64,000 nt of DNA from Prorocentrum cordatum (Eukaryota), in the NCBI GenBank assembly GCA_963575745.1, contig CAUYUJ010000094.1, positions 1 to 64,000 on the forward strand, read 5' to 3'. Position numbers and translations under genes: made by a program. Shown here one piece after another: positions 27,198 through 58,165 of the stretch; the first letter of the stretch is position 1, and every line of letters begins with the position of its first letter. The notes beneath the pieces were generated by a model. That model was not told the origin of the DNA. It searched no databases and saw only the letters and a program-made list of their open reading frames with translations.

Positions 27198-27219
27198 CTT
27201 GAGCCAAAATGGCTACGGA
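27198..27219 (-). other. Genomically integrated dinoflagellate spliced leader (perfect 22-mer)
   Basis: Minus strand TCCGTAGCCATTTTGGCTCAAG equals the DinoSL consensus DCCGTAGCCATTTTGGCTCAAG. Confidence 0.97.
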
Positions 27220-39544: not shown

Positions 39545-39699
39545 TGGGCGGCCGATTTCGGTGGCCGGGGCCGGGTGCCCGGGTGCCCGGGGGTGCCCGG
39601 GGGTGCCCGGGTGCCCAGGTGTGTGGCCGATTTCGGTGGCCGGGGCCGGGTGCCCAGGTGCCCGGGGGTGCCCGGGGGTGCCCGGGTGCCCAGGAGTGC
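39545..39699 (+). repeat. (GGGTGCCC)n tract; target of the 18-kb element, resuming at 57773-57813
   Basis: Same-orientation GTGCCCGG units on both sides of the element. Confidence 0.8.
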
Positions 39700-39722
39700 T
39701 TGGATGGCCGCGGCGGCTGCTA
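39700..39722 (+). repeat. Left terminal inverted repeat of the 18-kb element
   Basis: TTGGATGGCCGCGGCGGCTGCTA; reverse complement of 57749-57771 with one mismatch. Confidence 0.9.
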
Positions 39723-40072
39723 GGTGGTTAGCGCGGATACTAAGGGGTTAGAGGGTTTAGTATGTACGTACAAGTGAGTTGTAAGTAGGTTATAAGTGTT
39801 GTAAGTATGATGTAAGTTGTATAACCAGCTACAACTGGTTAGTAGGAGATACTAACCACTTATAGCTGGAGGCTAACCTTGCTAAGTCTCTAGTAGAGGT
39901 TAGCTCGCTAAGTCCCCACTCTAGCTACCACTTACTAACCACTTAGTAACCACTTAGCTGCCACTTAGTAACCACCCAGTAACCACTTACTAACCACTTA
40001 GTAACCACATAGTAAGTCCGCTAGCTAGCTTACTTACTAAGTGGTTAGCGGACTTACTAAGTGGTTAGCGGA
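39723..40072. repeat. Left subterminal repeat array
   Basis: Direct and inverted short units (TAACCACTTAG, TAAGTGGTTAGC, CTAGCTAG). AT-rich against the background and similar to 57525-57748; subterminal repeats are typical of CACTA elements. Confidence 0.8.
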
Positions 40073-41639
40073 CTCTGAGAAGGAGAAGGAGGAGGAGGAA
40101 GAGGAGGAGGAGGAGGAGGAGGAGGAGGAGAGGAGGGGGAGAGAGGAGGAGGAGGAGAAGGAGGAGGAGGAGGAGGAGAAGGAGGAGGAGATGTCGAGGA
40201 GGAGGAGGAGTAGGAGGAGGACGGGGAGGAGGATGAGGAGGAGGAGGAAAGGGGGAGGCGGCGGCGGAGGCGGCGACGGGCGCGCCTCAGCCCAAGACGG
40301 CCGCTCGACGCGGCGGCCCTGCAGGGCCGCCGCGTCGAGCGGCAGCCTGGCGCGGCTGAGCGCGGCGCAGGCGAAGTTCGCCTGCGCCGCGCTCTGCGCC
40401 GCCATCTCCAGCGGCATTGCCGCTGGCGCGGGCGGCGGGGGGGGCCCCGCGCGCCGCTCGGCAGCCAGAGCGGCCCACCGCACGTTGCCGTCGTCCACAA
40501 CCCAGAGGGTTGGGGGACGACGACGTGCGACGGGCCGATGGCTGCCGAGCCCGTCCCACCCCTCGGGGATGTCGAGGAGGATCCCCGACATCCCCGAGGG
40601 GTCCTCCGAGAGGAGACTGCCCCATGGCTCGGGGTCGCCATCGAAAAACATGTCTTGATCTGTTTTTTCGATGGCGATCCCGAGCCGCGAAGCAAAGGGA
40701 AAAGGGCGGGCGCGCCCCCGCGCGGCCAGTAAGCCGCACGCGCGCGGGCGGCGTCTCCTCCTCCTCCCTCCTTCTATCCTCCTCCTCCTCCTCCTCCTCC
40801 TCCTCCTCCTCGCCTCCTCCTCTCGCCCTCCTCCTCTCGTCATCATCCTACTCCTCCATCGTCCTCCTCCTCCTCATCCTCCTCGTCCTCCTAACCCTCC
40901 GCTCCTCCCTCGTCCTCCTCCTCTCGCCCGCCTTCCCTTCGTAATCTCATATACTCCCCTAGTCCTCCGTCCTCCTCTATCCTCCTCCCGTCCCTTAACC
41001 CTCCGCGCCTCCCTTTCGCCAGCGTCCTCCTCCTCCCCTCATCCCCCTTTCCTCAATCCTCCTCCTCCTCCTCCTCCGCTCCTCCTTTCCTCCTCCTCCT
41101 CCTAGCTCCCTCTCTCTCTCCTCCTCCTTCCTCCTCCTCCTATCCTCCTCTCATCCTCTCCTTCCCTCCCTCCTTCCTCCTCCTCCTCCTCCCTCTCTCT
41201 CCTCCCTCCTCCTCCTCCTTCTCCTCCCCTCCTCCTCTCCTCCCTCTCCTCCCCTCCTTTTTTTTTTTTTCTCCCCCCCCCCCCCCCTCCCTCCTCCCCA
41301 CCTCCTCTCGCTCTGCGCTATCTTCGTCGTTTTCTTCCTCCGCATGCTCCTCCCCTCCTTTTATCCCCCTCCTTCCCCTCCTCTCTTTCCCCCCCCCCCC
41401 CCCCCCCCCCCCCCTCCCCCTCCTCCACCCTCCTCCCCTCGCCAGAGGAGGAGGGGGAGAGGAGAAGGAGGAGGGGGGGCAAGATGAGGAGGAGGAGCAG
41501 CAGCAGGAGCAGGAGGAGGAGGGGGAGAAGGGGGAGGATGAGGGGAAGGAGGAGTTTGAACGACCGCACCACTGATCAACGACATTAGCGCTGCAGCGCA
41601 AGAGGAGGCGGAGGAACGAGGCGGAGAAGAGGAATCGGC

Positions 41640-41838
41640 GACCATGCACTGTTCAGGTGCTGCAGCACCGAAGCGTCAATGAAAAAGGTGCGCTACAGCG
41701 CCATGCAGAAGGAATCCACGTTTTCAAGGCGGAGAAGAGGAGTCGTCGACCATGCAACGTTCAGGTGCTGCAGCACCGAAGCATTTAGCAATGTAAAAAA
41801 GTGCGCTGCAGCGCCAGTAAGGAATCCACGTTTTAAGC
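41640..41838. repeat. ~108-bp tandem duplication, each unit with two GCTGCAGC-type palindromes
   Basis: GACCATGCA..GTTCAGGTGCTGCAGCACCGAAGC...GTGCGCT(A/G)CAGCGCCA...AAGGAATCCACGTTTT occurs twice, immediately downstream of the transposase stop. Confidence 0.8.
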
Positions 41839-43718
41839 TAAAGCGCACCACCGCGGCTGCGACCATATCGGGCGCGCCGCTCGGACGCCGCCGCCCTCGC
41901 GCGGCGCCCACGCGAGCGAGCACACGATGCTCGCCGTGTGCGCCCAAAAGGCGTCGGCATCGCCGCCAAGCACGTGCGCGGAGGCGCGCGGGTGCAGCTT
42001 CTCCTTGAAGAAGTAGGGCAGGACCAAGCTCAAGCCATAGTAGTGGCCGTTCTTGGTGAAGGAGAGGTGTTTCAACACCTCGGCCGCAATGTGTTCCCCT
42101 CCTCCGTCCTCCAACAGCACGACGTCGCCGTATTTGACGTCGTGGTAGCGGCACCGCGCTGCAGCGGACGTAACAAAGTCCGCAGGCCCGAACTGCTGCA
42201 GCAGTTCGCGCGAGATGGCCTTGGACGGCCTGGTGGCGTTAACCAGGCAGTTAACCTTAAAGGCGCCGCCATCCATGAGCTGCCACAGGTGCCGCTCGGT
42301 GACGCTCTTCAGGACAGTGGCGCCCCAGCCGCTGGAGGCTGCAGCCCCCGCCTGAAGAGCGTTCGCAAAGCGCTTGCTGGTCTTGTGCTTGCGCTCCAAA
42401 ACCCAGCGCGACGGCAGCGCCACATGGCCCCAACGCCTCACGTAGTTGGCGAAGTGGTGCAGGTAATGGAACGTCTGCGCCATCGTTTCCTTGCCAAAGA
42501 CGCTGCTGTATGACAACAAAAACCTGTTAACCGCAGCCTGCAGCTTATCCGCGTCTGCCTGACGCCTGGATACTCGTAGGATTTCTTCCACAACGATCGT
42601 GCGCGCCTCGAACACTGCGCAACCCGATCGGACTGCAGGCGCTGCAGCGTCGCTAGCCACCTCCCTGAAGAAACACGTCAATCCGCCCGCGCGAACGCAT
42701 GTCCGAACAAGAGGGGTGCAATACATATCCTACAGACATTCACGTGCGCTGCAGCGCATGTATTATTGGTCTGGCGGGGGCGCGAAGCATGCAATGATAC
42801 TTGCATGGTTGTGAGCCCCTCGCTGGCGGTACACTTGAAATGCTTGCTGTCAACGTGGGACCTCACGCGCTTCCCGCCGAAGATCGCGCACGTGTCGGGG
42901 GAGATGGAGTGGCGCCCTGGAAACGACCAGTCCTGGAAATATGCGTCTGCGCGCGCCCAGTAACCCTTCAACCTTCGAAACATTTGGAACACCAGAATGT
43001 TATATGTACCGTTGACGAAAATACAATGCATCCAATCAAACATGACTGTCTCGAGCGGCTTGAGTTTCCGAACCCGCTCAGGCAAATGGGGGTCCCAGTT
43101 CCAGCCAAGTCGGCGCTCCAACTCCTGGAACTCGCCCTTGTTCATGATGTTGACCCCTTCGATCAATCTGTTGCAGATGGCATCGAGCAACGGCGCCGTC
43201 ATCGGCTGCAGCCGCGACGCATCTGGTTCCGAGTGGTGAACAGCGACACCCGTCGCATCAGAAGCAACTATATCCCGAACTTCGCCCTTCAAGAACACGT
43301 TGCGGCACATAAAACATGGTTTGATTCCTGACGAACCTTTCATTCCGATCAAGCGGTGTATTGCATCCTCGTCCGCGATCCGACAGAGCCGCTGCAGCGA
43401 CGCAAGAAGGCGTAATGGATATATACATGTGCACATGTATGCTAACTAATCTTGGGTGCTATGCGGCGACCGCTGCAGCGGCTGCATGTAAATTCCGAGG
43501 TCCATCTGGATGAGCTCCGTCGCGCCGTCGGGGCGCAGCCGCAAGCTGATGCCTGCGCTGAAGTTGTGCCCCTGATCAGGCCAGAACTGCGCGAGGATTG
43601 CGCCCAGTAGCATCGGCAGTCCGCGCGGCTGGATGTCGTTCGCGGTCTTGGCCCGCATCGTCGCGAGCTGGAACCACGCATCCTGCGAGCAAATCGCAGC
43701 ACAACTGGCGCTGCAGCG

Positions 43719-43773
<55 letters not shown>

Positions 43774-44283
43774 CCCCCTCCCCCCCCCCGCATATATCGT
43801 TGCTGCAGCAACGCTATCGCGAAAGTCCTCCGACGAAAGCGCCTGCGGGCCGAATTCCGCGATCGTCCAGTAGATGCCCCAGGACTTGCGGTTCTGCGCG
43901 TGCGCCAGCGCGTTGCCAGCGCCTATTTCATCGCCGTAAATGATGATGTGCCACGGGCGTGGCAGCTCCAGCGCCCGCTGCCACAGAGGCTGCGTCGCGG
44001 GGAGGGCGCTGCAATGCCACAGCATTGCTGCTGGACTGCAGATCTCCACCGCGTGCTGTCCGACTATCATGTTCTGGTGGAGCTTGCCGCACGGCGTGTT
44101 CTCACCGACCATGAGCTCCCGAGCGTCTCTGATATCCTGGCGTCGGGATCCCAATTCGGGGATTCCGTCTCGCTTAACGGACGCCAGGAATTGCGCCATC
44201 GCATTACAATGCATGAATGGCAGTTCCGCGCGAAGGCGGGACAGCCGCCGCAGCTTCGCTGGGCGGTCGTCCTCTGCCGCCAT
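41833..44283 (-). CDS. CMC/CACTA(EnSpm/Plavaka)-like DDE transposase, about 4 exons
   Basis: Motifs in order across joined ORFs: WHIIIYGDEI (D1), IADEDAI (D2), KPCFMC (CxxC), FDWMH, FHYLHHF, WVLERKHK (E). This matches the CMC signature D-D-C(2)C-[M/L]H-H(3-4)H-E. Intron 1 (43683-43827) is a clean in-frame GA..AG intron (SSE|DAWF). Introns near 43390-43490 and 42680-42800 have uncertain junctions. Confidence 0.75.
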
Positions 44284-44964
44284 CGCGCGCGTTCCCGAGG
44301 CAAGCTTGCCTCCGTCGCTGCGCGCGCGCGGAGGGGCCCCTCCGCTAGGGGCCACGGCGACTACGGATGGAAATGAGGCTGCACCGCGTGGAGAGCAACC
44401 AAATGCGCGCTGCAGCGCTAACTGCCAAGCAACAGTCTGGGAGCACATGGCGCTACAGCGCCGCTAACGTTCAATGATGACAATCTGACGCGCTGCAGCG
44501 CGAACGTCCTCCTCCTCCTCCATCCTGCTCGCCATCCCCCTCGTCCTCCTCCTCTTCCTCCCCCTCCTATACCTCCTCCTCCTCCTCCTCCTCCTCCCCC
44601 TCCTCCTCCTCCGCCTCATGCGCCCCCTCATCCTCCCCATCCTCCTCCTCAACCTACCCATCCTCCTCATCATCCGTCTCCCGTCCCTTCATCCTCCCCG
44701 TCACCATCACCTTCATCGTCAACAGCATCAATATCACTCGCCCTCATCATCCGCCACATCACCATCCAACGAGAAACTGCAAGCGAAACTGCGCTGCAGC
44801 GCAACACATTAACACAGCATGATCCGCGCGCAAACTTTCAACCGTGGTCCACGGAGAAGCGCTGCAGCGCAACTCAAACAACACGCTCAACCACGCCCCC
44901 TCCAGCCTTTACCAACCAATCGAACCAGCATGCTTCAGCAGGCGGTCGCCGAGGCCGACCTCAC

Positions 44965-45395
44965 TCAGGTCACCTTCATCTTCTTGGCGTTCCGCAGCGA
45001 GGTCAACGCCTCGTTGAGTTTCTGGTTGGCCACGTCCGAAGCGGCGATGTCCATCTGACCCCGACCCTGCTACTCATACTCCTCATCCTCCCACATCATC
45101 GCCTTCCACCTCCTCCTGATCATCCCCCCTGTCGTCCTTCTCCCCCGCTGCAGCGGGGGAGTAGCCTGCCACACTCATGAACCCCACCGTCCTCCTTCTC
45201 ATCCGCCTCCTCATCCACCTGCAGCTCCGCGGTGCGGATCTGCACCTGCTTCTCCGCTTGCCTGGCGTTCTTCCGCGCCTCCTTCACCTCTGCTGTAGCA
45301 GTCGCCGTCGCTCTCGCGCGGGCCTCGCGCAACTCGTCGCGACGGTCGGCGCGCGCTTGCGCTTCGAACGGCTTGTCGCAGCGGCGCGCCGCCAT
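44965..45395 (-). CDS. Small coiled-coil protein (88 aa, 2 exons)
   Basis: ATG at 45395; GT..AG intron 45055-45218 joins ...IRTAELQ|MDIAASDVANQKLNEALTSLRNAKKMKVT* in frame; Ala/Glu/Arg-rich heptad-like composition. Confidence 0.55.
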
Positions 45396-46136
45396 TGCGA
45401 GCCCAGTGAGGAGGCGGAGGAGGTCCGTTGCCAGCACCCGCTGCAGCGAACGATGGCGGCTGCGACGCGCGAGCCAAGTGAGGAGGAGGAGGAGGAGGAG
45501 GGAGGAGGGCATGCCATCGGCAACGCGCAACATGAGCGAATCACAGCGCTGCAGCGCGTGACTTGGCAACAACCATGCGGGAGACAACGCTCGACATCAC
45601 GAATGATGGCGCTGCAGCGCGTATCGACGAGAAACGACTGGCACTCAAGACGAGCACGTCACGCAATACATGGACACCGCGGCTGCAACTGCACACTCAC
45701 AAACGCGCCAACGCTACAACGGCACCACAAGTCTGACAGGCGCTGCAGCGCTGCATCGGAACACAACAGCACGCAATATCTACGCCACCATCCAGGAAAG
45801 CGAGCGCTGCAGCGCTGCATCGTGATCATGATGGCGATGCAAACGTTGAACACAAAGGCGCCAGCGCTGCAGCGCCCGCATCCAAGAGAACCCGTCAACA
45901 TATTTGACTTTCATCCTCCTCGTCGTCCGTGCGAGCCGCGCGACCGCCAGGCAAGACCATCGCCACTACCGTTCATATCATCGGCCAGCGTTCCATCCAA
46001 CCTCGCACTAATCCTCACCATCCTCCTCATTCCTTCTCCTCCACATGCTCATCCTCCTCATCATCCTCCCCATCCTCCTCCTCGCCCTCAGAATCCTCAT
46101 CCTCACCTCCATATGCCGACAGTGCCCGTTGCGCGC

Positions 46137-47992
46137 TCACGGCTTGCCGCGACGGCCAGTGAAGTTCGGGTCGCGGCACGTGCCGCAGCCATTCGGCAGG
46201 TAGCGGCATTTGCTGCACCCGAGTGCCATTTGGCCCCGTTTGGCTGCCTCCTTGCCCTTGGGCTTGGCCTTGGCCGTGGCTTTGGCCTTCCCTTTGCCCT
46301 TGGCCTTCGGTTTGGCCGTGCCCTTGGCCGCCGTCTTGCCCTTGCCAGCGCCTGTCTTGTTCTTGCCCTTGCTCGCGTTCTTGCCCTTGCCCTTCTTGCC
46401 CTTGCCCTTGCCCTTGCGAGGCAGCTCGCCTTTCGCGCTGCCCGCAGCCAAGGTCTCGATCGCCTGCAGCACAGCATCCTCGTCTCCGTCTGCTGCTGCA
46501 GCAGCATCTTCGTTTGGCGGCGTTGGCGCTGCTGCAGCAGCATCTGGCGCCGCCGCTGACAATGCTGGCCCAGCTGGCGAATCACCAATCGCGGGGGGAC
46601 TCGCGGGGGGGCTCGCCGTGGGCGCCGCAGGGCGGCGCGGGAAGAGCTGCAGCTGCAGCTCGTTGGGCGGCGATGGCGGTGGCGCAAACGCTGCCAGCAT
46701 TTGCTGCATCACGGCCATCGCGTCCATGGGTTGCATTGGCGCTGCAGGCGGCACGGAGGGTGACCCCGATGGTGTCCATGGCACAATGGCAGTGCTCGGC
46801 TGATGCGGTGGGGCGGCAGCCCGCAAGCCCTTGTTGGTCAGCCTGAGAGGCACGCGAGCCTTGATGGCGTTGAGACCCGCAGGCCGCTTCAGCGGCGCAC
46901 GCGTAGCATGAAACCTATCATGCTCTATGCGAGGTGGACCTAAAGGACCGAGCTCACCGAAGCACCCAAGACATCCAGAACAATCAGCGCTGCAGCGCAT
47001 GACGGGGTGGCAGCAGCCTCGTAGATGCGATGCCACGTTGGCGAGGTCGCGCGTCACATCGATCGGCGGGTCCGCATCGGTGTACGCCGCGTCGAAGATG
47101 TGCTGAGGGAGCTGCCGAGGATCTGCTGGGAAATTCCAAGTCACTGTCGCCGCTTGCCCCGTCGCGCCCCTGCGGCTCGCCAAGAACTGACCCTGTAAAG
47201 GGCGACTCGTCGGGAAACCCTAACGCTGACGCGCCGAATCGCATTGGCTGCAGTCAGTGCGATGCGATGCGTCTGCGTTAGGCGTTCCCGCCGAATCCCA
47301 AACCTTCATCTCCGTCACGATCCCGTAGAGCTGCCCGGGGTTTGCGTCTGGAAGATGGGCGCATGCCATCAACGCCGCCAACTATTCCAGCGTGTTCTCG
47401 CCCGGAACCGTCAAGCCGATGGCACCGCAACGTTTGATCAACGCGCGCGCCTTCGCGACGATGCTCTGGTTGGGGTCGCGAAATAAACCCCAGTCCTGCA
47501 CGGTAAAGTCCACCAGCCGACGAATCGACGCAGGCATGCTGCAGCAGGATAACATAAGTACATTTGGAACATGAACATGGTAACATACATAAATTACAGA
47601 ACAAACAATTAAACCATACATGTGAATAACACTTCGGCGGTCCGATGTGCAAAGCACGATGGATAGCACCGCCCTGACGCGAGCGTCTGCGCGCGCATCT
47701 GGAGCGCGGGCGTCGCCGTGCCCACGCGCGCGGCCAGCGCGGCGCTGAGGCGCGCCTTGCGGCTGTCCGCTAAGCCCGACGCGGTGATTCGATTATGCAG
47801 GGTAGCTGCTTGGGCAGCCCCGATCGCCCCCAAGTTGTGAAGCTGCAGCTGCACGCTCCTGGACAAGGCGGACTGGCTCTGCGCCATCGCGTCGGCGGCG
47901 ATGACGCCGATCTGCGATGCGAAGAAAGCGCCGCAGCTGTCCATGTTATCCAGGATGTGGTTGATGGGTGTGGCCGCAGCCGCGGCAGACAT
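46137..47992 (-). CDS. Multi-exon protein with Lys-rich histone-H1-like tract and C-terminal GCSKCRxxxxGCxxC zinc-binding motif; in-frame TAG at 47382-47384
   Basis: ORFs 47609-47992, 47382-47530 and 46137-47183 are co-oriented and read as protein (DFTVQDWGLFRDP; NFPADPRQLPQHIFDAAY; VPLRLTNK; KGKGK/AKAK tract; LGCSKCRYLPNGCGTCR). Exon joins are approximate. Confidence 0.65.
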
Positions 47993-48820
47993 GATGCCCT
48001 CCGCGAGGGCGAGGGGGTGCGCGGACGCTCCGAGGGGAAGCGCGAGGGAGGGCCTCCCACACTGCGAGAGCTGAAGCACTCGGCTGCTGAGGTGGAAGAG
48101 AGGCCACAACAGTACAGATGCGCTGCAGCGCAACGATCGCATGCAATTAAGGAACACACGTGAGCGCTGCAGCGCTCAGCAGAAATCATCGTCACAAAGT
48201 AACATGAAGCGCTGCAGCGCTATGCATGCGCACCATGATGGAACGCATGGTAGTGGGCAATAGGGAGAGAGATATAGAGTGATGGAAAGGAGAGGAGGGA
48301 GATAATGAGGGACACGGGGGGGAGGGGGGGGGGGCGGGGGGAGATGCGAGGAGACGCGGGAGGGAAGGACACGAGCGCGGGCGGGCGGGCGGGCAGGACA
48401 CGGGGGGGGATGCATGATCATTTGAGGAACACGGAAGGGACGGTGCGAAAGACACGGAGGGGTGGGAGGGACATGGGAGAAACACGGGGGGGGGGGGGGC
48501 ACGGAAGAGACACGGGAGGGACACGGGAGTTCGGGGGCGAGCGGGCGGACGGACGCGGGAGCGGCGCGGAGGGACACGGGCGGGAGCGCACGGAAGGCAT
48601 GTGGAGACACGGAAGGGGCACGGGAGAGACGCGGGAGAGACACGGGAGACGGATAGGTATACACGGGAGCTCGGGAGCGGGCGGGCGGGCAGACACAGGA
48701 GGGACACGGAAGGTGTCCGAGGAGGGCGCGGGACGGATTCAGGAGATGCGCGAAGTGTGATCAGGAGCAAATGCCGAAGCGATCTGGGAGCCTCGAAGGC
48801 AGCTGGGACATCGACAGAGG

Positions 48821-48970
48821 CGTGTCTGTTCAATAGAGGGGGCTATTGAACAGACACGGGCGTGGCTGTTCAATAGAAGGGGGCTATTGAACATGGCATG
48901 TTCAATAGATGGGGCTATTGAACAGACGCGGGCGCGGCTGTTCAATAGAGGGGGCTATTGAACAGACGCG
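48821..48970. repeat. Four tandem hairpins TGTTCAATAG-N6/7-CTATTGAACA
   Basis: Directly visible; the first has a 16-bp stem (48821-48858). Intergenic within the element. Confidence 0.9.
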
Positions 48971-50187
48971 CCGCTGTCAGACAGCACCACCTCTGCAGAG
49001 GGGCACCGACGCTCTCAGATCGCTTCACCCGAAGCTCCCGTTCGACCTCAGATCAGCCATCCTGATGCCAACACCCAGCACTCCAGCCCACCCCAACGCC
49101 CACCCACGCAGTCCCAGAACACTGTCCACACTGCTGATTTCGATGTGGGAGTGAAGCTAAGAGAGGCGCGAAGTACATCACGCGGCGCTGCTGCAGCAAC
49201 GTCGCGACGAGGTTGACGACGCCGAAACCGCTGTCAACTGCAAAGGTCTACGCTCACGGCTCTGCTGCAGCAGCGTCGCGATGGCTCGAGACTGCCGAGG
49301 ACAAGGCTGATGGGAGCTGGTGAGGCTGCCAGGAGGCCATGGGGGGAGCTACTCGGCGGCGCAACGAACTGCGCTGAAGGGGAGCAGGGAGAGTGGCGAA
49401 GGGCGATGCGATGCGAGACGGCTTGCCATCTGAAGTGCCCCAGGACCCCCCCCCCAAGTGCCCCCAAACTTTCCTGGCCAATCCAAGGCCGACCCCTGGC
49501 ACATCATTCCATGCGAAAAAATGTCGGCGGATCAGGATGTGAACGTCGACGATGGCAGATATATGTGATGAGGATATCGGAGCGCCTTTCTGGGCGACAG
49601 CGCGGGCGCACCACGCGATCTGGCGCACGAAATATAACTTGGCCTAAACACATGCATGCGTCGGCGTCAGCTATGCTCGCGAACTGATCCAATCCACCCC
49701 CCCATTGCTCCCATTGATCTTACATGTTGGGTTGCTACAGCATGTATCCTATCACTATGCGTTCGTTGTCCCCCTCGCTCACGGGAGAGTGGATACCCGC
49801 TGCAGCGGGCATCCTGTCTACCGTCTCTCTCCAATGTGTCTTCACTCCACCCCCACGCTGCGTCTCCATCGTCCCCCTCGCATTCCCTATGTATATCACG
49901 TCTCCCCCCTGTCTACCTCTACTATAGTCCCCCCTCTCCCCCTGTCTACCTCCACTGCGTTACCGTCCCATTCCGTCGCCCACCAGCAGTGGAATGCTCC
50001 GCGGCCGCGCCGCAGCTCTCATGTGGCGCCCGCAGGCGCTGCAGCGCCAGGAGGGCGCAGCGCCGAGGGCGAGCCCTCGCGAGGGCGAGGGCGAGGGCGC
50101 CTGCCGAGGGCGAGCCCTCGCGTCGCCGAGACGGCGTGGCGCCGCGCCTCCTCGGCGGCCGCCTCCGCGGCCTCCTCCGCGGCCTCC

Positions 50188-50745
50188 TCATGAGGCGCCC
50201 CTCGGCGGCCTCCTCAGCGCCTCCCCGGGCGCCTGCGCCTCCTCGGCGGCCTCCTCGGCGCCAGCGCCGACCCAGACCTGTGCAGGCCCAGCGTAGAACT
50301 CCTCCGCGAGGGCGGCCGCGTCGGCGCACTCGCCCTGCAGCAGCAGCTCGCAGAGCTGCTGCGCCCGATTGAACCAGCCGCCACGCCGCTGCTGCTGGCC
50401 CCCGTCGCGGACAAGCTTGCCCTTGCCGCCCTTGCTCTTGTCCTTGCCCTTGCCCTTGCAAGGTGGGCCGCCGCCGCCCTTGTCCTTGCCCTTGCCCTTG
50501 CCGCAAGGTGGGCCGCCGACGTTGTCCTTGTCCTTGTCCTTGTCCTTGCCCTTGCCCTTGCAAGGTGGGCCGTCGCTGCCGCCCTTGCCGTGCGGGGCGG
50601 CGCGCGACGTCGGCCGCGCCTTGGCGGCAGCGAGCTCGACAGCGGGGTCCCGCGGCTCGAACCCTGGCGGCGGCACCGCAGGCGGCGTCGGCCGCAGGAC
50701 GGCGAACTCCTCGGCGCCCTCGTCGTAGTCGAGATGCGACGCCAT
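50188..50745 (-). CDS. Small basic protein with GPPCKGKGK repeats and a GGW helical micro-domain
   Basis: MASHLDYDEG... three GPPC(G)KGKGK repeats, then RGGWFNRAQQLCELLLQGECADAAALAEEF. Co-oriented with the other element genes. Confidence 0.6.
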   Translation of the reverse strand: MASHLDYDEGAEEFAVLRPTPPAVPPPGFEPRDPAVELAAAKARPTSRAAPHGKGGSDGPPCKGKGKDKDKDKDNVGGPPCGKGKGKDKGGGGPPCKGKGKDKSKGGKGKLVRDGGQQQRRGGWFNRAQQLCELLLQGECADAAALAEEFYAGPAQVWVGAGAEEAAEEAQAPGEALRRPPRGAS

Positions 50746-51831
50746 CGCTGCGCGATGCAGCGAGCGAAGCTGCAGCCCGCCAAGCTGCATGATGGGCTTG
50801 GTTTCCACCACCAGTACCATAAGTTGGAGGGAGAGGTCCTCCTCCTCCTCTTCTTTCTCCTCCTCCTCCTTCTCCAACATGTGGTAGTGGTGGTGGAAAC
50901 CAGTCCCATCACTGCAGCTGAAGCTGCACTCGGGCGCGCGGGCGCGCGACGCTGCAGCGCGCGAAGCTGCAGCTGCAGCTGCGCGGAACAAAAACAGCGG
51001 CGGTGCCAACGACGAATACGATGGCGACGACGCTGACGACGATGGACCCCTGCTAACCAGTCGACTGACCCCCCAAAGTAACATCACCCCGCAAAGTAAC
51101 ATCACCCCCAACTGAACCTCCGAAGGCCAACGACTGGATTGACCTCCCCAGGGCTGCCCCCTCAGGATAGGAGGAGGAGGAGGGGAGGAGGAGAGGGGGA
51201 GGAGGAGGATTGGAGGGAGAGGAGGAGGGGGGGGAGGAGGGGGGGCAGGAGAAGGAGGAGGAGGAGGAGGAGGACACGGATGAGGAGGAGAAGAAGGAGA
51301 GGGAGGAGGAGGAGAAGGAGGAGGAGAAGGAGGAGTAGGAGAATGAGAGGGAGGATGAGGAGGAGGAGGAGGAGGAGGAGGAGGAGGAGGAGGAGAGGGA
51401 GTATGCGGAGGCAGGAATAGGCAGAAGGAGCGGGGGGGCGGGGCATGGGTGCCAACTGGTTGTCTTCCTCCTCCTCCTCCTCGTCATACTCCTCGTCCTC
51501 GGCCTCCTTCTCCTCCTCCTCCTCCTCCTCATCATCATCATCATCATCCTGCCCCCCCTTCCCCTGCTCCGAGGTGCTGGCAGCGAGCGGTGGGAACCTG
51601 TGAAAATGAGGGCGTTCCAGAACGTCGTCCTCAATGTCGTCGTCCTCCTGATCACCCTCCTCCTCCTCATCATCATCCTCCCTCCACCTTCTTCTCCTGC
51701 ATGCACTGCTCTGAATTACGTCGTCTTTAACGCCGTCGTCGTTGTCTCTGTCGCCGTCGCCGCCGTCGCGATGCTGTATCCGACTGAAACAGTGGTGCTG
51801 CAGCACTGACCGCGCGCGCGCCGCGCGCCCG

Positions 51832-52185
51832 TCACTTCCGCGGCTTCTTCGCGACGTGGTATTGGACTGCCAGCGCAACCGCTGTCTCGCGGCCCCCGCG
51901 CTGAAGCGCTTCCCGAATCATGTCGCACACAAGCTTCCACGTGCCAACCTTGGTCTCAGCATCGCGCTTGCGCGCGGCTGCAGCCGCGCGCGGGGCTGGC
52001 ACATCACTGGCGGCTGCAGCCGCGGTCCTCGTCGACGTCGAAGGGGGTGGTGGCGGCGGCGGCGGCGGAGGAGGGGGAGTAGCCGCATGTGTCGCATCCG
52101 ATGCAGCGGACTTCGCCTTCGGCGGCGGCACTGGCTCCGAGGGAAGCCGCCATGGCGGCGTCGCTGCACTCATGTTGGCAGCCAT
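51832..52185 (-). CDS. Small Pro-rich protein with GxW helical micro-domain and C-terminal NLS-like KKPRK
   Basis: C-terminus VGTWKLVCDMIREALQRGGRETAVALAVQYHVAKKPRK aligns without gaps to the micro-domain of 50188-50745. Confidence 0.5.
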   Translation of the reverse strand: MAANMSAATPPWRLPSEPVPPPKAKSAASDATHAATPPPPPPPPPPPPSTSTRTAAAAASDVPAPRAAAAARKRDAETKVGTWKLVCDMIREALQRGGRETAVALAVQYHVAKKPRK

Positions 52186-52695
52186 TGATGTTCTGATCAC
52201 AGGTGGCTGCGAACCACATACAATAACCTAAAGCGAACATGCGGGCTGCAAGCGCGACCGAAGCGCTACATCAACACGCCAGACGCACACAATGTAAGTC
52301 AGCGCTGCAGCGCGACGCAAAACTCTGATATCGGCACGCCAGACACCCGAACGTAAGTCAGCGCTGCAGCACGATGGACTCCAAACACACGAAACGCAAG
52401 TCAGCGCTGCAGCGCCGTGAGGTCACACATCGACGGCGGCAACGCGTGAGAGGCACACTTGATCGTAGTGTCGTCGTGCTGCAGCACGCTTGATCATACC
52501 AACGATTCGCAATGACACCAACAGTAGCGAACATTGGGGGGATCCACCAACAATCCGCAATTATTATCCCAATCCTCCTCTTCCTTCTCCTCCTCGCCCT
52601 CGTCCTCGTGCTCGTCCTCCTCGCTGCCATTCTCAATCGCACTGCCGACCGTGATCGCACGCCCCAGCGATGCGGTCGACCGAGCGCGCCGCAGC

Positions 52696-53460
52696 TCAGT
52701 CCGAGTCGGCCTCCTCCTCCTCCGCATCGCCCTCCGCCTCCGCTTCCATCTCCTGGAGCTCATCCGCTTCGCAATCCTTGAGTTCGGCGGTGCACCACTT
52801 CGCCGCGGCCGCTTCAGCGTCATCCTTGCTGCAGCCGCGGTTTGTGCGGAACAAGGCCGTCCTGCTGCAACCGCAGTCTGTGCGGACGGCCCGCCAAGCT
52901 TGGAGCCGCTGCACCCAATAGACGCGGGCGCCGCAAGGAACATCGGTCTCGTGGCGCCGCGGGCGCTTCAGCACCGTGCTCGCCTCTGCCGCCTCCGCCG
53001 CCTCCTGAAGCAATTTGGCCTTGATGTACTCTACGCCCTTCTCGTGCAGCACCACCTGCAGCTTGTCCCTCCCCCCCTTATGAGGTGGGGGAATGACAAT
53101 CTGCAGCTCTGTTGCCTCCGTATCGCCAAACGGCGGCAGCTGCACTGTCTTGAAGCACTCGTCGACTGGAACCTGGCGACTGGCGCGGCCGGACCGCGTG
53201 GTCGGGCGGCGGCCTGGCTCCGCTGCAGCGAAGAGCGTCGTCGGCGCCGTTGGCCCCGACGACGCGGTGCGCTGATTTTTCAGCCACGTTAGGAACATCG
53301 TGCCTCGCAAGCCCTGAGCCTTGCCGCACACCCACTTGCTCCAACCTGCGGTGGTCACGGTGATACACTCGCGGTCTCCGATGACCTCGACGGCCGTGAC
53401 CAGCTCGCGCCCCGTACGGTTGTCGTGCAACACGACGCAGTCGCGCTTGATCGTCGTCAT
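52696..53460 (-). CDS. Intact 254-aa protein with C-terminal AP2-like DNA-binding domain and acidic tail
   Basis: aa ~177-223 (nt ~52792-52932) GARVYWVQRLQAWRAVRTDCGCSRTALFRTNRGCSKDDAEAAAAKW follows the ApiAP2 pattern (GVxW...W.A...F...EA...A..W). NLS-like KRPRR precedes it. Confidence 0.7.
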   Translation of the reverse strand: MTTIKRDCVVLHDNRTGRELVTAVEVIGDRECITVTTAGWSKWVCGKAQGLRGTMFLTWLKNQRTASSGPTAPTTLFAAAEPGRRPTTRSGRASRQVPVDECFKTVQLPPFGDTEATELQIVIPPPHKGGRDKLQVVLHEKGVEYIKAKLLQEAAEAAEASTVLKRPRRHETDVPCGARVYWVQRLQAWRAVRTDCGCSRTALFRTNRGCSKDDAEAAAAKWCTAELKDCEADELQEMEAEAEGDAEEEEADSD

Positions 53461-53957
53461 CGCGCGCGCGGCGCGCCGAGGCTGCAGCCCGAGCGCGGTC
53501 GCACTTCAGCGCCAAAATTGCTGCGATGGAGTGATGAGGCAACATGTGCGCGGACGAGGTGCTCATGATGAGGTGCGCTGCAGCGCATGTGAAAGATGAA
53601 GCGAAGAGCAACGATCACATCGAGCACAACAGTAATGACGAAGCCGCTGCAGCGGCATGTCTGTGGGAAAGGCTGATGTCAGCACCAATATTGTACAGTC
53701 GCTGCAGCGACGATGCTGGCGCAACGAATCGTTCCGCGCGCTGCAGCGCCGCGGCAAGTATCGCACTTCGCACCAACCCGCACACTGTTTACACCAATCG
53801 GAGGGCCACGCTCGGTGCCGTCATGTGCGCTCGCCGCTCCTTAAGCCCCCTCATCCTCCTCCCTATACCCAACCTTACCCTGCCTCCTCCTCCTCCTCCT
53901 CCGCATCGCCCCTCCCTCCTGCCTCACCCTCCCGCGTGGTCCCTCTATATCGCCAGC

Positions 53958-56869
53958 TCAGGCCGCCCTGAGCTTCTTGGCTGGCCGCGGCTGCAGCCGC
54001 GGCCACGGCTTCACCACCAGGAAGTCGCCCGCGGACAGGGCGCAAGTGTTATGCATCTGGGGCGCCCCCACCTGCACCTTGTTGACGCCTGTCCCGAACG
54101 TCACGGTCTCCTTTCGGAGCTCCATGCTGGGCTCTGAGTCGGACTTTGCCACCACCCAGAAGGGGATGACAAAGGCGTCGGGGCCCCGCGACCCCTCAGC
54201 GGGGGGCCCTGCGAAATGCGGGCCCACGAAGAACTCGTAGAGGCCAACCTTCCCCAACGAGATGCTCTCCGCAGCGCAGCCCGTGCTGACCCGCGTGGAC
54301 GAGGCCGAAATGCGACCACTCCCACCGCGTGGAGCTACATGGCGCGCAGTCGGTAACATCACTGACCTCGTCGCCACGGCCTGACGTGCCCCGAAATCCT
54401 CGCTGCCCCGTGCTCAGCGCAGCGCTGCAGCGCGGCGTCGTCGGAGGGGGGCGCGGACGATTGCGGAAGCACAAGTCTGACGAGCTCACCCACTTTGAAC
54501 GCTCGCTTGCAGCGCACGGCAGGTGGGTCCTGCAGGATCTCCAAGTGCAAAATGTTCGCCTGGTACTTCAGCGCTTGGAGCCACAGCGCCATGTCGCATG
54601 CCCCCTTGAACGCGCCCATCGCCCAGCCCTCGTGGGCTGGCGGCAAGTGCTCCTTCGTGAACGACAACTGCTCTTGCACCCTGGACGTCAACTTGTAATT
54701 CTCGAGCAATATGTTTACTTCAATCCGCCCGCTCGGCTAACTGCTCCGTGCGCTGCAGCGCATCGACCAACCCATTGCAACTTAAGTACAGGAAATACAA
54801 TATCGCAGTTGCTACCTCCTCCTCCCCCCTCCCTGCTCCCCACGGGCGGCGGGGTGGCTGCAGCCACGCAATGGAGATCTCTTCGCCCACCAGGTCGCCG
54901 TGCAACTTCTTCTGAGCGGTGATCCCATTCTCCGAGATGGAGAGCACCTCGAAGACGTCATCCACCTACTTCTTCTGGACGATGTGCTTCCCCACGTCGA
55001 ACCCTGCACGCCGCGTGCGGAAGACGTTGCTCTTCAACTCAGCGGCCGACGACGCTGCCGAGCGCGGCGCGTCTGCGTCGGCGCTTGCTGGCAACTCGGG
55101 TGCGCCATCGCCTTGCTTGTCGGTCTGCACCGCCTTGCCGAACTCGATCCCCAAGCTCTTCATCTGCAGCTGGGCTGGCTCCCCGAGCTCATGGAGGAAG
55201 ACCTCTCTGGAGGGTCGCTGCAGCGACATTGAATGGCGAAAAGCAGGGAGGGATGGAAACAAGGAGCACACGAAAGGTGGCATGAGAAGATACCTGTGCT
55301 ATATCTGCTACGCATCCGAAAGTGCGGTCTCCTGGCGCTCGCTTCTTCACCAGGTACATGGCACAGCGGACATCCAACTTTGTGATGTGCAAGAAGCCCT
55401 GCTCCGCTCCGATATCCAACCTCTTCGCGAGCGACCTTGCGTCGGCCATGAGGTTGTCGGCCGCAGCCACGTCCGCCTTGCGGGACGCGACGTGGACGAT
55501 CTCGTTTGCCTTGATCCGCCCATCGCTTCAGCGATTGCGTTTGGGAATAAAGCAATGTAACGGTGCGTGTGTGTGTGTGTGTGGGGGGAGGGGGGAGGGG
55601 TGGGTACGCAGTTCTAACAATGCAGCGCAATGCATAGATGCGCTGCAGCGCATGTCACTACAAGGGGGCGCCGACAAGCTTATGGATGGTCCTGCACATG
55701 CTATCCACCACGTGCTCGCCTGAATAGTTGGCCTTCACGAGCGCCGCTACGACATGCGGGTACGACTCCTGGTGCTTCCCCCATTTAATCGAATTCAACT
55801 TGCGCCAGAATTCAGAGCCGCACATCAAAGTTTGCCCCGAGACGTCCACATTCGTGAAGGTCTTGAGGGCTTCATCTATTTCACGGAGAAGTTCTCCGTT
55901 TTGTGGCCCGAGCTCAACAAACTTGCACAAGTCAGCGATCCACGCCTTGCAAGGTGGGTTCGCGTGGCCCGCTTGCTCGGCGATGTCGCGCCAATCGGGC
56001 TTGCTGGAACCCTGAGCGAGGCTGTGTGCCAAGAGCATCCGCCCACCTGCCTGCAGCAAGCGCCGAGCCGATCAAGTGCTGCAGCACGGTAAGATATAAT
56101 GCTCCTGCTCCTCGTTCTCACCTCCTCCCCAACGCACTCCCACTCATCGCCCTCCTCGTGCATCATCCTGGTCCTTACTACATACCGCTATATACTAGAG
56201 TGGGGATAGGCTGCAGCCTGACCGAATGATCTCGGTCTCGTGAACCGCCTCCCTGACGTCGGCGTTCAAAGCCCTCTGCGCGAAGTTCTTGAGGCCCTTC
56301 ACTTTGGCCACCGCGTGCTTGATGATCAACCACGTCAGGCCCTTTTTGACTGCCGTCGCAAGTTGCGGATGCAACGCGCACAGCTTTTCGGAGTCGATGT
56401 TGTCCCGAGAGTCTGCCCGCGCCTTCACTGTGGTCGGCGCCTTGGCCAGCACGCAGCGGAGGAAGACGTTCGTGTGGGAGCCGCCCACTGACGTATACCG
56501 CAATGAGTCCAGCGGGGGGCACCGACCCCCGCTGAGCCGCGAAAGGCGGTCGTTCGCCATCGCGGTCTCTTCCAACTGCGCCCCATGCGGGGCCTCGAAG
56601 GCAGTGGCTGCAGCCGTCTGGGCCAAGACGAAGCCCTGGGCGCAAATCTTCGCGCCTAAATTGTGAGCCCGCGCAGGGTTCACTTACGAACCGCTGCGGT
56701 TCCGAATGTCGATGCCCATCTGGTCCGGTGGGACCTGCTGGTAATACGCTAGCCCCTCCGCCAGCAGGAACTCCTTCAGTTGATCCCACCCCGATGCCAA
56801 CCTCCCCGAGGCATTGCTTTCCTCGATGTACTGCAAGATCTGCTCCTCCTGACGCGCCTGCAGCGCCAT
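53958..56869 (-). pseudogene. Multi-exon ParB/Srx-like N-terminal plus divergent SET-like C-terminal protein with in-frame stops
   Basis: N-terminus VPPDQMGIDIRNRSG*VNPARAHNLGAKICAQGF...SVGGSHTNVFLR is ParB-N-like. C-terminus AVRCKRAFKVGELV...IPFWVVAKSDSEPSM...PQMHNTCALSAGDFLVV resembles SET-N/SET-C. Stops at 56684-56686 and 54966-54968 are followed by in-frame continuation. At least one clean GT..AG intron (DIAQ|VFLHE). Confidence 0.6.
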
Positions 56870-57524
56870 GCCAGCGCTATATATAGCGCCAAATGCAACG
56901 TGCGAGCCCGCGGGCGCGACGGCGGATGCGGCGCGCGGCCGCAGCTTGAGACAAGCTGTCGCGCGGCGTGCGCGTGAACATCGACTTGCATGGACATGCA
57001 ACTTGCGAGCAAAAATGTTGATCTGGGCTGCAGCCCGAGGCCCATGAAGCACGAGCGCGCACGCGCTGCAGCGCGATGCGACATCACGACGACAACCATT
57101 TTTTTGCGCTGCAGCGCAAAGTAACATACGTGCTATCAAATTTGGAGCGCTGCAGCGCTCAATGCGACCATTGAAAAACAACGAATACAACAAAACATAA
57201 TTGACATGTGCATTCAAATTCCTTGCAAACGGAGCTGGGCGAAAATGAAGATCCGAACAACGTGCAACTAGAAAACCATGCATTTAACTCAACATTCAGC
57301 GCTGCAGCGCTTCATCTTCAGCGCACGCAGCGCTTCATGTTCATATAAATCCGAAGGCAGCGCTGCAGCGCTTCTCATATTTAAAGCAAAAATCCAGGAC
57401 ACCGACTCCAAATCAAAATGCAAAATTTGTAGCGCTGCAGCGCTCAACGAACAAACTCAGCTCTTTCAAGACGTGGATTTACCTTTTTTCCCTGTGCATG
57501 GCCCTTGGATAACAAGTGCAATGT

Positions 57525-57748
57525 AACCGCTAAGTCACTTATAACCTACTTAGCAAACTAGCTATAAGCGGTTATAAGTGGTTAGCTAAGTGCGCTAAGC
57601 ACTTAGCTAACTGGTTATAAGTGGATAGCTAAGTACTTACTAAGTCATTACTAAGTGGGCCACTTAGTAATGACTGAGTAAGTACTTAGCTAAGTCCGCT
57701 AACTACTTACTAAGTACTTAACTTAGCGTAGTAAGTATGTTAAGTACT
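57525..57748. repeat. Right subterminal repeat array
   Basis: Units such as TAAGTGGTTAGCTAAG, ACTTAGCTAAC and CTAAGTACTTA, related to the left array. Confidence 0.8.
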
Positions 57749-57771
57749 TAGCAACCGCCGCGGCCATCCAA
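57749..57771 (-). repeat. Right terminal inverted repeat of the 18-kb element
   Basis: TAGCAACCGCCGCGGCCATCCAA. Confidence 0.9.
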
Positions 57772-57814
57772 TTGCCCGGGTGCCCGGGGTGCCCAGAAGT
57801 GCCCGGGGGTGCCT

Positions 57815-58165
57815 AGCCCAATAGCCCTATATCCCTATAGCCCAATAGCCCAATCGCCCTATATCCCTATAGCACTATAACCCTATAGCCCTATAGCCCT
57901 ATAGCCCTATAGCCCGATAGCCCAATAGCCCCATAGCCCTATAGCCCTATAGCCCTATAGCCCTATAGCCCTATGGTCTTAAAGCCCTATAGCCGTATAT
58001 AGCCCTATAGCCCTATAGCCCGAATAGCCTTATAGCCCTTAGCCCTATAGCCCTATAGCCCTATAACCCTACAGCCCTAAAGGCTTCTAGCCCTATATCC
58101 CTATGGCGACATCGCCCTATAACCCTATAGCCCCATAGCCCTAAAGCCCTAAAGCCCCATAGCCC
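57815..58165. repeat. (CCCTATAG)n satellite
   Basis: Degenerate 8-bp tandem repeat. Confidence 0.9.

Follow-up and report, generated by a model that had tools for sequence, protein, structure and literature searches.

Short palindromes dispersed over a mobile genome and recognized by a viral dimer are known, as in the hr repeats of baculoviruses, bound by IE-1, and the oriP repeats of EBV, bound by EBNA1. Such sites are clustered and longer than those described below; the element's own protein recognizes them as duplex, and their arms do not covary. Among the DNA transposons, members of the Transib/RAG1 superfamily produce a 5-bp target duplication and have CACAGTG-like termini, while members of the CACTA/Mirage/Chapaev group duplicate 2-4 bp of target, carry arrays of subterminal repeats and have an accessory gene adjoining the transposase. 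To our knowledge, an interior array of palindromes has been described for neither the RAG1/ProtoRAG/Transib nor the CACTA-Mirage-Chapaev families. A formal parallel is found in cyanobacteria, where the 8-nt GC-rich palindrome HIP1 (GCGATCGC) is over-represented tens to hundreds-fold in both coding and non-coding DNA and is kept by selection, its function having long been unknown (PMC5861425). HIP1 is distributed chromosome-wide in the bacterium and has been tied to two dedicated methylases (PMC13756078).

The window analyzed here, a DNA stretch of 64,000 nt, contains 76 exact copies of the octamer palindrome GCTGCAGC. Of these, 73 start between 41590 and 57434 and constitute a field (41590..57441, no strand) of mostly 12-14-nt perfect palindromes with covarying flanks. 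The earlier note had estimated by eye about 70 copies in 41588..57444 and a handful elsewhere, against an expectation of about one per 16 kb. Exact counting yielded 73, and the copies in the remaining ~46 kb were precisely the three it had cited, at 5398, 20518 and 36992. Markov models of order 0-2 predict 0.5-1.5 copies within the interval (15,857 nt, 62% GC) and 0.75-2.7 beyond it; models of order 3 and above, fitted on the same sequence, absorb the motif itself. In 100 dinucleotide-preserving shuffles of the whole window, the mean number of copies was 2.8 and the maximum 7, and none of the shuffles reached the observed number. Inside the field, 73 of the 89 CTGCAG hexamers are embedded in the full octamer, versus 3 of 18 outside, and no single-mismatch variant exceeds 8 occurrences per strand (range 0-8), which is the background level. 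Host DNA, represented by this window's ~46 kb of flanks, shows no comparable density: the sole clear host gene outside the element, a kinesin motor gene on the minus strand (25566-27212, Pfam E 4e-59), contains no copy at all. The excess inside the element is confirmed as genuine, and the word is element-specific, far above every background tested.

We assign next to no probability to composition, codon usage or the multiplication of a single repeat unit as an artefactual source of the excess, and this explanation was rejected. A few neighbouring sites indeed share longer flanks through local duplication (41659/41767, 45742/45806 and 49190/49264), but the flanks are unlike at most sites, no repeat family explains the copies, the observed number far exceeds the Markov expectation, and relatives of 50% GC carry the same word. 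Since 57 of the 73 sites are non-exonic, according to an approximate gene map, a bias towards Ala-Ala or Leu-Gln codons does not explain the excess. Trinucleotide bias does not account for it either.

Like HIP1, GCTGCAGC is an octamer palindrome that occurs many-fold over expectation in coding and non-coding DNA, and to this formal extent the resemblance proposed in the earlier note stands. Unlike the chromosome-wide HIP1, it is confined to a eukaryotic transposon family, with 3 copies in the 45.9 kb outside in this window. Moreover, in contrast to the methylase-linked HIP1, no methylase domain was detected among the 206 six-frame ORFs scanned or the full-length gene products, a comparison that covers the element's own genes, and the flanks of GCTGCAGC covary as in a stem. 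The HIP1 word itself has no occurrence inside the element.

The field is carried by a mobile element of ~18.07 kb (39700..57772, minus strand), located within GGTGCCCGGG-type satellite, with three homology-recognized genes (ORF1, ORF2 and ORF3) on the minus strand. Its terminal inverted repeats were read directly, the left one being TTGGATGGCCGCGGCGG (39700..39716, plus strand) and the right one its reverse complement (57755..57771, minus strand). Subterminal repeats of ACCACTTAGTAA-type units, devoid of GCTGCAGC, follow on the left (39720..40075, no strand) and have a counterpart at about 57520-57750 on the right. Four runs yielded contigs covering the element at an identity of roughly 97-99%, and a contig of run X4, from another sample, represents the empty site: it joins 39696 to 57773 and skips 18,076 nt, with TGC shared. 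The element is a cut-and-paste DNA transposon. Its target duplication, as judged from this single empty site, is 3 bp (TGC) or an imperfect 4 bp, and its termini read TTGGATGG, both of which differ from the pattern of the RAG1/Transib superfamily. The TGC duplication, the subterminal repeats and the accessory gene ORF1 are shared with the CACTA/Mirage/Chapaev group. In contrast to that group (Plavaka), the ends are not CACTA and the transposase has no PF18759 or PF02992 match; the sole connection is a lead from an Atlas cluster that scored 0.93 and in which 38% of the members carry Plavaka. We know of no CACTA-type structure in the PDB for comparison.

The presence of a transposase, as supposed earlier, was borne out by ORF2 (41839..44283, minus strand), which was delineated by tblastn of P0002 together with the ORFs of relatives and comprises four exons (approximately 44283-43830, 43683-43480, 43388-42801 and 42730-41839, minus strand). 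In total, 1,117 relatives were recovered at E<=1e-3, while 15 full-length relatives (10 + 5 ORFs) gave no Pfam match at E<=0.01-0.05, PF18759 and PF02992 included. The AlphaFold model of one relative, P0010, has a pLDDT of 93.5, and its top Foldseek matches were the RAG1 core (E 2e-9), BbRAGL (2e-5) and HzTransib (1e-4); RAG1 chains matched at E 2e-9 to 1e-6 with TM 0.36-0.57. The predicted fold is thus like that of RAG1/ProtoRAG/Transib, namely a RAG1/Transib-type RNase-H-like DDE core with a RAG1-type insertion domain. Among 44 transposase sequences, D225, C244, C247, H495, H499 and E517 are invariant and D124 nearly so. In their RAG1-like order, these residues would supply a catalytic D, D and E and a Cys2/His2 zinc site, with the Cys pair near the second Asp and the His pair ahead of the Glu; their putative counterparts in RAG1 are D600, D708, E962, C727, C730, H937 and H942.

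Upstream of the transposase lies the conserved accessory gene ORF1 (46146..47965, minus strand), kept in L001, L005, L007, L008, L012 and L015. Its product combines a tract rich in Lys and Gly with a motif, LGCSKCR..GC..C..P.F.G.R, at the C terminus; it has no Pfam match, and its predicted structure is too poor for classification or for assignment as a nucleic-acid binder. ORF3 (53961..56869, minus strand; ~725 aa, six exons) was recognized by tblastn with P0156 and P0159 as queries. Its protein cluster has 22 members, all those named being from Prorocentrum cordatum; ORF3 yielded neither a Pfam match nor a usable Atlas hit. In this copy it is interrupted by in-frame stops at 56684-56686 and 54966-54968. 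A fourth open frame with a coding-like codon score (candidate ORF4, 52699..53460, minus strand) has no recognized homology and is supported as a gene by no relative.

GCTGCAGC sits at the centre of a perfect palindrome of 12-14 nt. Counting outward from the core, the flanks form Watson-Crick pairs in layers 1 to 4 at 70, 56, 42 and 19 of the 73 sites, where chance is ~26%, so that layer 4 pairs at chance. The context GCGCTGCAGCGC, described as frequent in the earlier note, was recovered: position -1 is C at 44 of the 73 sites, and position -2 is G at 41. All four pair types are used in layers 1-3 (in layer 1, C:G 43, T:A 12, G:C 10 and A:T 5), and independent half-sites with the same single-column frequencies would give only ~30 of 73 pairs. 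At the three copies outside the field, the first flank base never pairs (0/3). The flank covariation keeps the 6-7-bp arms complementary. The field holds 81 perfect hairpins whose loop is 4 nt and whose stem is 5 or longer; in 35 of them the loop is TGCA, and the other 46 correspond to the density seen outside. Using RNA parameters, the median fold energy of 20-mers at the sites was -7.2 kcal/mol, versus -5.05 after flanks had been exchanged among the sites and -1.55 at randomly chosen positions. The corresponding predicted stabilities with DNA parameters were -4.6, -2.7 and -0.7. No Rfam covariance model matched at gathering score in 39000-58500. A 24-nt perfect palindrome (53982..54005, no strand), with a flank extension of 8, is located at the 3' end of ORF3, where it encodes WPRLQPRP.

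The copies were said to be spread over introns, intergenic DNA and exons, and such a distribution was indeed observed: 16 are exonic (in 6,682 nt), 12 intronic (in 1,254 nt) and 45 elsewhere (in 7,921 nt). The flank extension is mostly 1 at exonic sites and 2-3 at non-coding sites. Sparser and shorter palindromes in exons are what competition between the signal and protein coding would produce.

The earlier statement that the word is limited to one mobile element held within the window only, as the word recurs in relatives from other genomes. Nineteen metagenome relatives, forming a clade with 100/100 support, contain 78 copies of GCTGCAGC in 76,715 nt versus 3.9-4.4 expected, while seven outgroup relatives are at background (3 in 26,668 nt versus 1.7-1.8 expected). 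Near-duplicate loci (L005/L007/L008/L014 and L004/L016) reduce the independent lineages with a clear excess to about six. These relatives are short metagenome contigs in which the flanking host DNA is unseen, and the term element-restricted applies to this window only. Down to about 35% transposase identity the trait is common to the relatives, and it characterizes an entire clade of related transposons from other genomes. Pairing recurs as well: flanks pair in layers 1-4 at 24, 16, 16 and 10 of 25 sites in L001, and at 25, 18, 13 and 5 of 26 sites in six distant loci. One sister lineage is enriched in CATGCATG in place of GCTGCAGC, and the flanks of that word are unpaired (layer 1, 14/59), which indicates that a stem is not universal among the iterated words of the family.

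Individual sites turn over among the relatives while the density is maintained. L001 shares 61% nucleotide identity with this element; of 16 window sites it retains 4 exactly, versus 4.8% of all 8-mers (binomial P = 0.006), and other sites occupy non-homologous positions within the same introns. One exonic site forms an 18-nt perfect palindrome (42190..42207, no strand) in transposase exon 4, encoding ELLQQF, and a core at the same place, within one codon, is also present in L003, L004 and L005. In L005 the second layer is a C:G pair; in L003 and L004 it is T:A, the result of the synonymous changes CTG>TTG and CAG>CAA. Pairing at this shared site is retained by a compensatory synonymous pair.

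Since the flanks covary in a stem-like manner, a folded structure is indicated rather than a plain duplex word. We give about half of our confidence to the reading that the short palindrome nnnGC-TGCA-GCn'n'n', with GCTGCAGC as its unvarying centre, represents a selected structure-forming (hairpin or cruciform) cis-tag, maintained in dozens of copies throughout the interior of a clade of dinoflagellate DNA transposons whose transposase has the RAG1/Transib fold. Each copy would fold into a 5-bp stem with a TGCA loop on single-stranded DNA or on minus-strand pre-mRNA, or would alternatively form a cruciform in duplex DNA, for the extrusion of which arms of 6-7 bp are short. The constant apex might then be read by a factor, the ORF1 protein, the transposase or a host protein being candidates, and the entire element or its transcripts would thereby be tagged. 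Such a tag could serve to condense or pair the 18-kb element for transposition, to control expression or RNA processing, or to escape or attract silencing. Action as DNA and action as RNA appear about equally probable; in the window and relatives pooled, there was no excess of G:U wobble on the sense strand (22 wobble-type versus 15 A:C-type mismatches), which leaves an RNA stem without specific support. No description of an iterated GCTGCAGC-type tag in such elements was found in the open-access literature searched.

It is unlikely, though deserving of some weight, that a dimeric protein encoded by the element simply binds the copies as duplex sites. Their flank symmetry would then be a mutational side effect, and template switching at a palindrome could produce such symmetry without selection. 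A precedent exists in viral palindromic repeats that act as enhancers, origins or tethering sites; in the hr and oriP repeats, many short palindromes of restriction-site-like centre are dispersed over a mobile genome. The 73 copies of GCTGCAGC, by contrast, are single and scattered over genes, introns and spacers. The exactness of the 8-bp core, with its single-mismatch variants at background, accords with binding sites of this kind, as do the strand symmetry of the sites with no wobble signal, the conserved ORF1 that accompanies the transposase, and the different word of the sister lineage without paired flanks. Pairing also declines steadily with distance, from 96% to 77% and 58% and then to chance, in line with distance-limited copying. 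Conversely, pairing of layer 1 at 70 of 73 sites, and at 49 of 51 in the relatives, is very high for a side effect, the limit of three layers repeats in lineages of differing GC content, and the synonymous double changes in the exon preserve pairing.

We consider it distinctly improbable that a DNA modification or repair system targets the word or generates it as a by-product, in the way that HIP1 is linked to methylases. Apart from the formal likeness to HIP1, GCTGCAGC holds CTGCAG, two CWG sites and a TG on each strand, contexts like those in which dinoflagellates methylate cytosine and mark repeats with 5-hydroxymethyluracil (5hmU). In Amphidinium, a preprint describes 5hmU peaks with TG-rich motifs that are enriched in repeats and tied to the silencing of transposable elements, but the motif given there is GTTGTTGTTG-like and unlike GCTGCAGC (10.1101/2023.11.30.569493). 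As with methylases, no dioxygenase or nuclease domain was found in the element ORFs or gene products. Furthermore, a genome-wide enzyme would not restrict the word to a single element, and the covariation of the flanks would be left unexplained.

A role of the palindromes in splicing or RNA processing of minus-strand transcripts, whether as intron hairpins, donors (G/GC, the slash marking the junction), acceptors (CAG/) or paired intron ends, likewise has only a small chance of being correct. The introns are the densest compartment, at least one copy occurs in 8 of the 11 mapped introns, and in the P0156 gene model two ORF3 introns start exactly at the octamer. A pair of copies in the same frame, spaced by 81 nt, brackets transposase intron 2 (43391..43479, minus strand), as read from the sequence, and L001 retains both; this intron has no fitting in-frame GT/GC...AG pair. 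Its ends resemble those of the introner elements of Amoebophrya, non-canonical introns that have 8-20-nt inverted repeats at both ends together with short direct repeats (PMC7789003). At the sequence level, however, only the one element intron fits, and most of the palindromes are single and non-intronic. Against a general splicing role, 45 of the 73 copies lie beyond the mapped genes and 16 are exonic, and the word occurs within ORFs of relatives having unbroken transposase frames. Excision of the stretch between the palindromes of ORF3 introns A and D leads to stop codons, the intron 2 pair is spaced 76 nt apart in L001, which is no multiple of 3, and the predicted gene models P0156 and P0159 disagree.

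Finally, the transposase model matches hairpin-forming enzymes (RAG1, Transib), and the opening of hairpin-sealed ends yields short palindromic additions with variable arms, which the variable-arm palindromes of the field resemble. Repeated insertion and loss of small relatives, with flanks sealed as hairpins by a RAG1-like transposase, might therefore have left palindromic excision footprints, a very improbable origin in our estimation. The centres of footprints vary, whereas the GCTGCAGC centre is constant, and sites are kept between elements at 61% identity. Most of the exonic sites align to relatives with no insertion involved, and only the GAAAS site (42338) is located in a 3-residue insertion.

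The palindromic octamer GCTGCAGC, which has a TGCA centre and contains CTGCAG, occurs 76 times in the window. Seventy-three of these copies start within 41590-57434, and the other three, at 5398, 20518 and 36992, lie outside the mobile element (39700-57772). The count and coordinates given in the earlier note were right, as was its remark that the octamer often stands as GCGCTGCAGCGC. Dinucleotide-preserving shuffles of the whole window yielded a mean of 2.8 copies and a maximum of 7. Inside the octamer field (41588-57444; 15,857 nt, 62% GC), Markov models of order 0-2 predict 0.5-1.5 copies versus the 73 seen, and outside it 0.75-2.7 versus the three seen; composition was rejected as the cause of the excess. 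The full word is what is enriched: CTGCAG lies within the octamer in 73 of 89 cases inside versus 3 of 18 outside, and each single-mismatch variant is present inside in at most 8 copies per strand. The variants GCCGCAGC and CCTGCAGC are spread unevenly between the strands, but ordinary minus-strand coding accounts for this and it was discarded as a signal. Nor does the spacing look even: the octamers appear clustered, with next-neighbour distances of 6-979 nt. Among 120 ORFs scanned outside the element, the sole clearly recognisable host gene is that of a kinesin motor domain (25566-27212, minus strand, Pfam E 4e-59).

Three genes of the element are recognised by homology, all on the minus strand, and the protein matches bear the source name Prorocentrum cordatum. 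ORF3 (56869 to 53961; six exons by models based on the related proteins P0156 and P0159) encodes ~725 aa without a recognisable domain, and its named relatives are all from one species. Two in-frame stops, at 56684-56686 and 54966-54968, where related proteins carry Leu and Glu, indicate that the copy in the window is decaying. ORF4 (53460-52699) is a possible gene only. The accessory gene, ORF1, extends from 47965 to 46146, and the transposase gene, ORF2, from 44283 to 41839. Pfam returned only low-complexity noise for 206 six-frame ORFs of the element, 21 relatives or their ORFs and five ORF3 proteins, and a PDB sequence search with two pieces of ORF3 and the transposase relative P0010 gave nothing below E 0.15. 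The ORF1 model has a pLDDT of 46, with generic helical matches only (Z≤7.6) in a wide fold search; ORF3 had no feature match in the protein Atlas, where its model is poor (pLDDT 0.35, TM≤0.23). The automatic UniRef name "RNA-directed RNA polymerase", carried by transposase and ORF3 records (P0002, P0156, P0158, P0159 and P0163), is unsupported by Pfam, by the fold search or by any search here. It is possible that the octamer is a target of DNA modification, but the gene content gives this explanation no support.

In the representative protein library, 1,117 proteins are related to the transposase at E≤1e-3. The model of the full-length relative P0010 (pLDDT 93.5) most closely resembles, among solved structures, the RAG1 core (E 2e-9), an amphioxus RAG-like transposase and Transib, and the conserved residues comprise two Asp, a Glu, two Cys and two His, in an order that may correspond to that of RAG1. 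A weak lead in the protein Atlas points to Plavaka, a CACTA-type family, and the short target duplication, subterminal repeats and accessory gene of the element would also fit the CACTA-Mirage-Chapaev side. ORF2 is filed only as a putative RAG1/Transib-fold DDE transposase, with its superfamily left unsettled.

The bases that flank the octamer are themselves symmetrical. The first flanking pair (layer 1) is complementary in 70 of 73 sites and includes all four pair types (C:G 43, T:A 12, G:C 10, A:T 5). Independent half-sites, according to the single-column frequencies, would pair in only ~30 of 73, and the two flanks therefore covary. Pairing declines outward, to 56, 42 and 19 of 73 in layers 2, 3 and 4, the last being at the chance level (~26%), and is found at none of the three outside octamers. 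Perfect hairpins with a 4-nt loop and a stem of at least 5 bp number 81 inside the field, 35 of them with a TGCA loop, and the density of the remaining 46 equals that outside; the excess is thus one specific hairpin class and not general self-complementarity. When 20-mers were folded, median energies (kcal/mol) at the sites, after flanks were re-dealt and at random places were -7.2, -5.05 and -1.55 with RNA parameters and -4.6, -2.7 and -0.7 with DNA parameters. The shape predicted most often for the sites is a 4-nt loop closed by a 5-bp stem; natural TACA and TTCA variants of the loop stand at 44452 and 46886. G:T mismatches in the flanks show no excess over A:C ones on either strand, in the window or in relatives, such that neither an RNA nor a DNA stem is indicated over the other, and Rfam gave no match. 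The strongest rival to a folded element is a site read as duplex by a dimeric protein, with flanks symmetrised by mutation. An origin of the palindromes as excision footprints was rejected.

The distribution of sites within the field varies with coding. On an approximate exon map, exons carry 16 sites in 6,682 nt (2.4 per kb), introns 12 in 1,254 nt (9.6 per kb) and the rest of the field 45 in 7,921 nt (5.7 per kb), the last class including ~2.5 kb of simple repeats with zero copies. Each spacer that follows a gene contains 4-7 octamers, 40-110 nt apart, and 8 of the 11 mapped introns contain at least one. Flanks extend mostly by 1 in exons and mostly by 2-3 in non-coding DNA, the outcome expected from competition with coding. 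Exonic octamers translate as AAA, LQ or CS, and most are substitutions rather than insertions against distant homologues; the octamer at 42338 (GAAAS) lies within a 3-residue insertion common to the window and L001, the metagenome locus of a transposase relative.

Several coincidences suggest that the palindromes act in splicing. Two ORF3 introns in the P0156 gene model are predicted to start exactly with GCTGCAGC, as a GC donor (56217 and 54864, minus strand), and the CAG of an octamer (47538-47545) seems to form the end of one AT-rich intron in ORF1. Transposase intron 2 (43389-43479, minus strand) is flanked on both sides by CGCTGCAGCGG; the two copies stand 81 nt apart and share a reading frame. 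A stop codon lies within the intron, which no in-frame GT/GC...AG pair appears to fit. In this layout it would resemble the non-canonical Amoebophrya introns with inverted and direct repeats described in PMC7789003. In L001, both CGCTGCAGCGG copies are kept and the stretch between them is an open read-through. As a general splicing rule, excision between paired palindromes was rejected from L001 and from introns A and D of ORF3, and a role in splicing cannot account for most of the sites. The P0156 and P0159 models of ORF3 are mutually inconsistent.

Relatives of the element carry the same word. A pattern search of metagenome contigs with an 8-row transposase alignment recovered 31 loci. In L001, at 71% protein identity, GCTGCAGC is the commonest palindromic octamer, with 25 copies in 6.1 kb. 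The same is true of L004 (4 copies), L005 (8), L007 (7), L008 (9), L009 (2) and L013 (5), and in L003 (3) it shares first place; these seven loci have ~35-40% protein identity and ~50% GC. Of the 31 loci, L027-L031 were omitted from the maximum-likelihood tree, in which 19 of the others group with the window in a clade of 100/100 support. The 19 loci contain 78 copies in 76,715 nt versus ~4 expected, compared with 3 in 26,668 nt versus ~1.8 expected in the seven outgroup loci, although near-duplicates among the loci reduce the independent lineages to only about six. The flank rule is also common to these relatives: layers 1-4 pair in 24, 16, 16 and 10 of 25 sites in L001, and in 25, 18, 13 and 5 of 26 sites in six distant loci. 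The trait is therefore independent of base composition, and old. The earlier note had interpreted the array as HIP1-like and limited to one mobile element; this stands in part, and the reading now takes in the family of the element and the stem-like covariation of the flanks.

The window and L001 share 61% nucleotide identity, and 4 of 16 window sites in the aligned stretch are kept (P = 0.006; 4.8% for all 8-mers); other sites occupy different places within the same introns. Octamer sites turn over while their density is maintained. At the exonic LLQQ site, where the cores of the window, L003, L004 and L005 lie within one codon of each other, layer 2 is C:G in L005 and T:A in L003 and L004, via the synonymous changes CTG>TTG and CAG>CAA, which is one clear compensatory case. 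The word has almost been lost from the sister lineage L012/L015, where CATGCATG is present in 23 and 36 copies, mainly outside exons and with unpaired flanks, and CATG in 145-159 versus ~22 expected, a ~7-fold excess. In L030, a more distant locus outside the tree, 14 of 18 CATGCATG copies lie in a 740-nt cluster (6270-7010).

Together, these features are probably best explained by selection that keeps a small folded nucleic-acid element, which some factor would read. This interpretation is preferred because the apex is exact, the stem is limited in length and free in sequence but paired, the conservation is lineage-wide, sites turn over at constant density and depletion occurs only where coding constrains. 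A more specific proposal, which we consider rather improbable, is that a hairpin of constant apex and free stem every ~200 nt of DNA or RNA serves as a self-identifying barcode, by which a cognate factor, perhaps the ORF1 protein, would recognise the entire RAG1-fold element; lineages could then switch barcode, as to CATGCATG or CATG in the sister clade.

The closest formal analogue of the array is HIP1, the iterated cyanobacterial palindrome. In the open-access papers searched, neither GCTGCAGC in dinoflagellates nor a transposon-linked iterated palindrome was found described. At least 121 stretches of viral contigs have three octamers within ~200 nt; the four richest among the matches listed are tandem repeats coding for Ala-rich protein or coding DNA high in GC, and lack a dispersed covarying pattern. 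The array is grouped here with iterated palindromic cis-words, and the chance that it stands further apart from described systems is substantial. Under the folded-element reading, the array would be a eukaryotic, transposon-restricted counterpart to the HIP1 puzzle, with the extra clues of covarying flanks, a word conserved over deep divergence of the element and a sister lineage with a swapped word. The purpose of iterated palindromes would then be testable on a compact 18-kb unit of three or four genes, and the reading would bear on the recognition of mobile elements in genomes without nucleosomal chromatin. As a k-mer, GCTGCAGC also makes a convenient marker of a large RAG1/Transib-fold transposase family in dinoflagellates, which is unclassified and lacks a Pfam model, and this abundant family may merit its own study.

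The element ends in TTGGATGGCCGCGGCGG at 39700 and in its complement at 57771, with ACTTAGTAA-type subterminal repeat arrays interior to both ends, and is embedded in GGTGCCCGGG satellite. An empty site is seen in a contig of sequencing run X4, where 39696 is followed directly by 57773 with three letters shared, giving a target duplication of 3 bp (or an imperfect 4 bp). At ~97-99% identity, the element is covered by contigs of four runs, some of which carry a marine-metagenome label, so the element family is young. C>T and G>A predominate among the differences between copy and contigs across 39000-58500, making up ~80-92 of some 200 places in each of the four runs. Contigs of three runs (X1, X2 and X4) join 46278-46429 to 50416-50437, omitting ~4.0-4.1 kb; both stretches are Lys/Gly-coding CCTTGCCCTTGC repeat blocks, and the joins reflect either copies of the element shortened by deletion or a cross-match between the repeats. 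The subterminal repeats at 57679-57752 match positions 6306-6387 of L024, a distant outgroup relative without palindrome excess, at 76% identity over 82 nt, and the matched part is the end of that relative.
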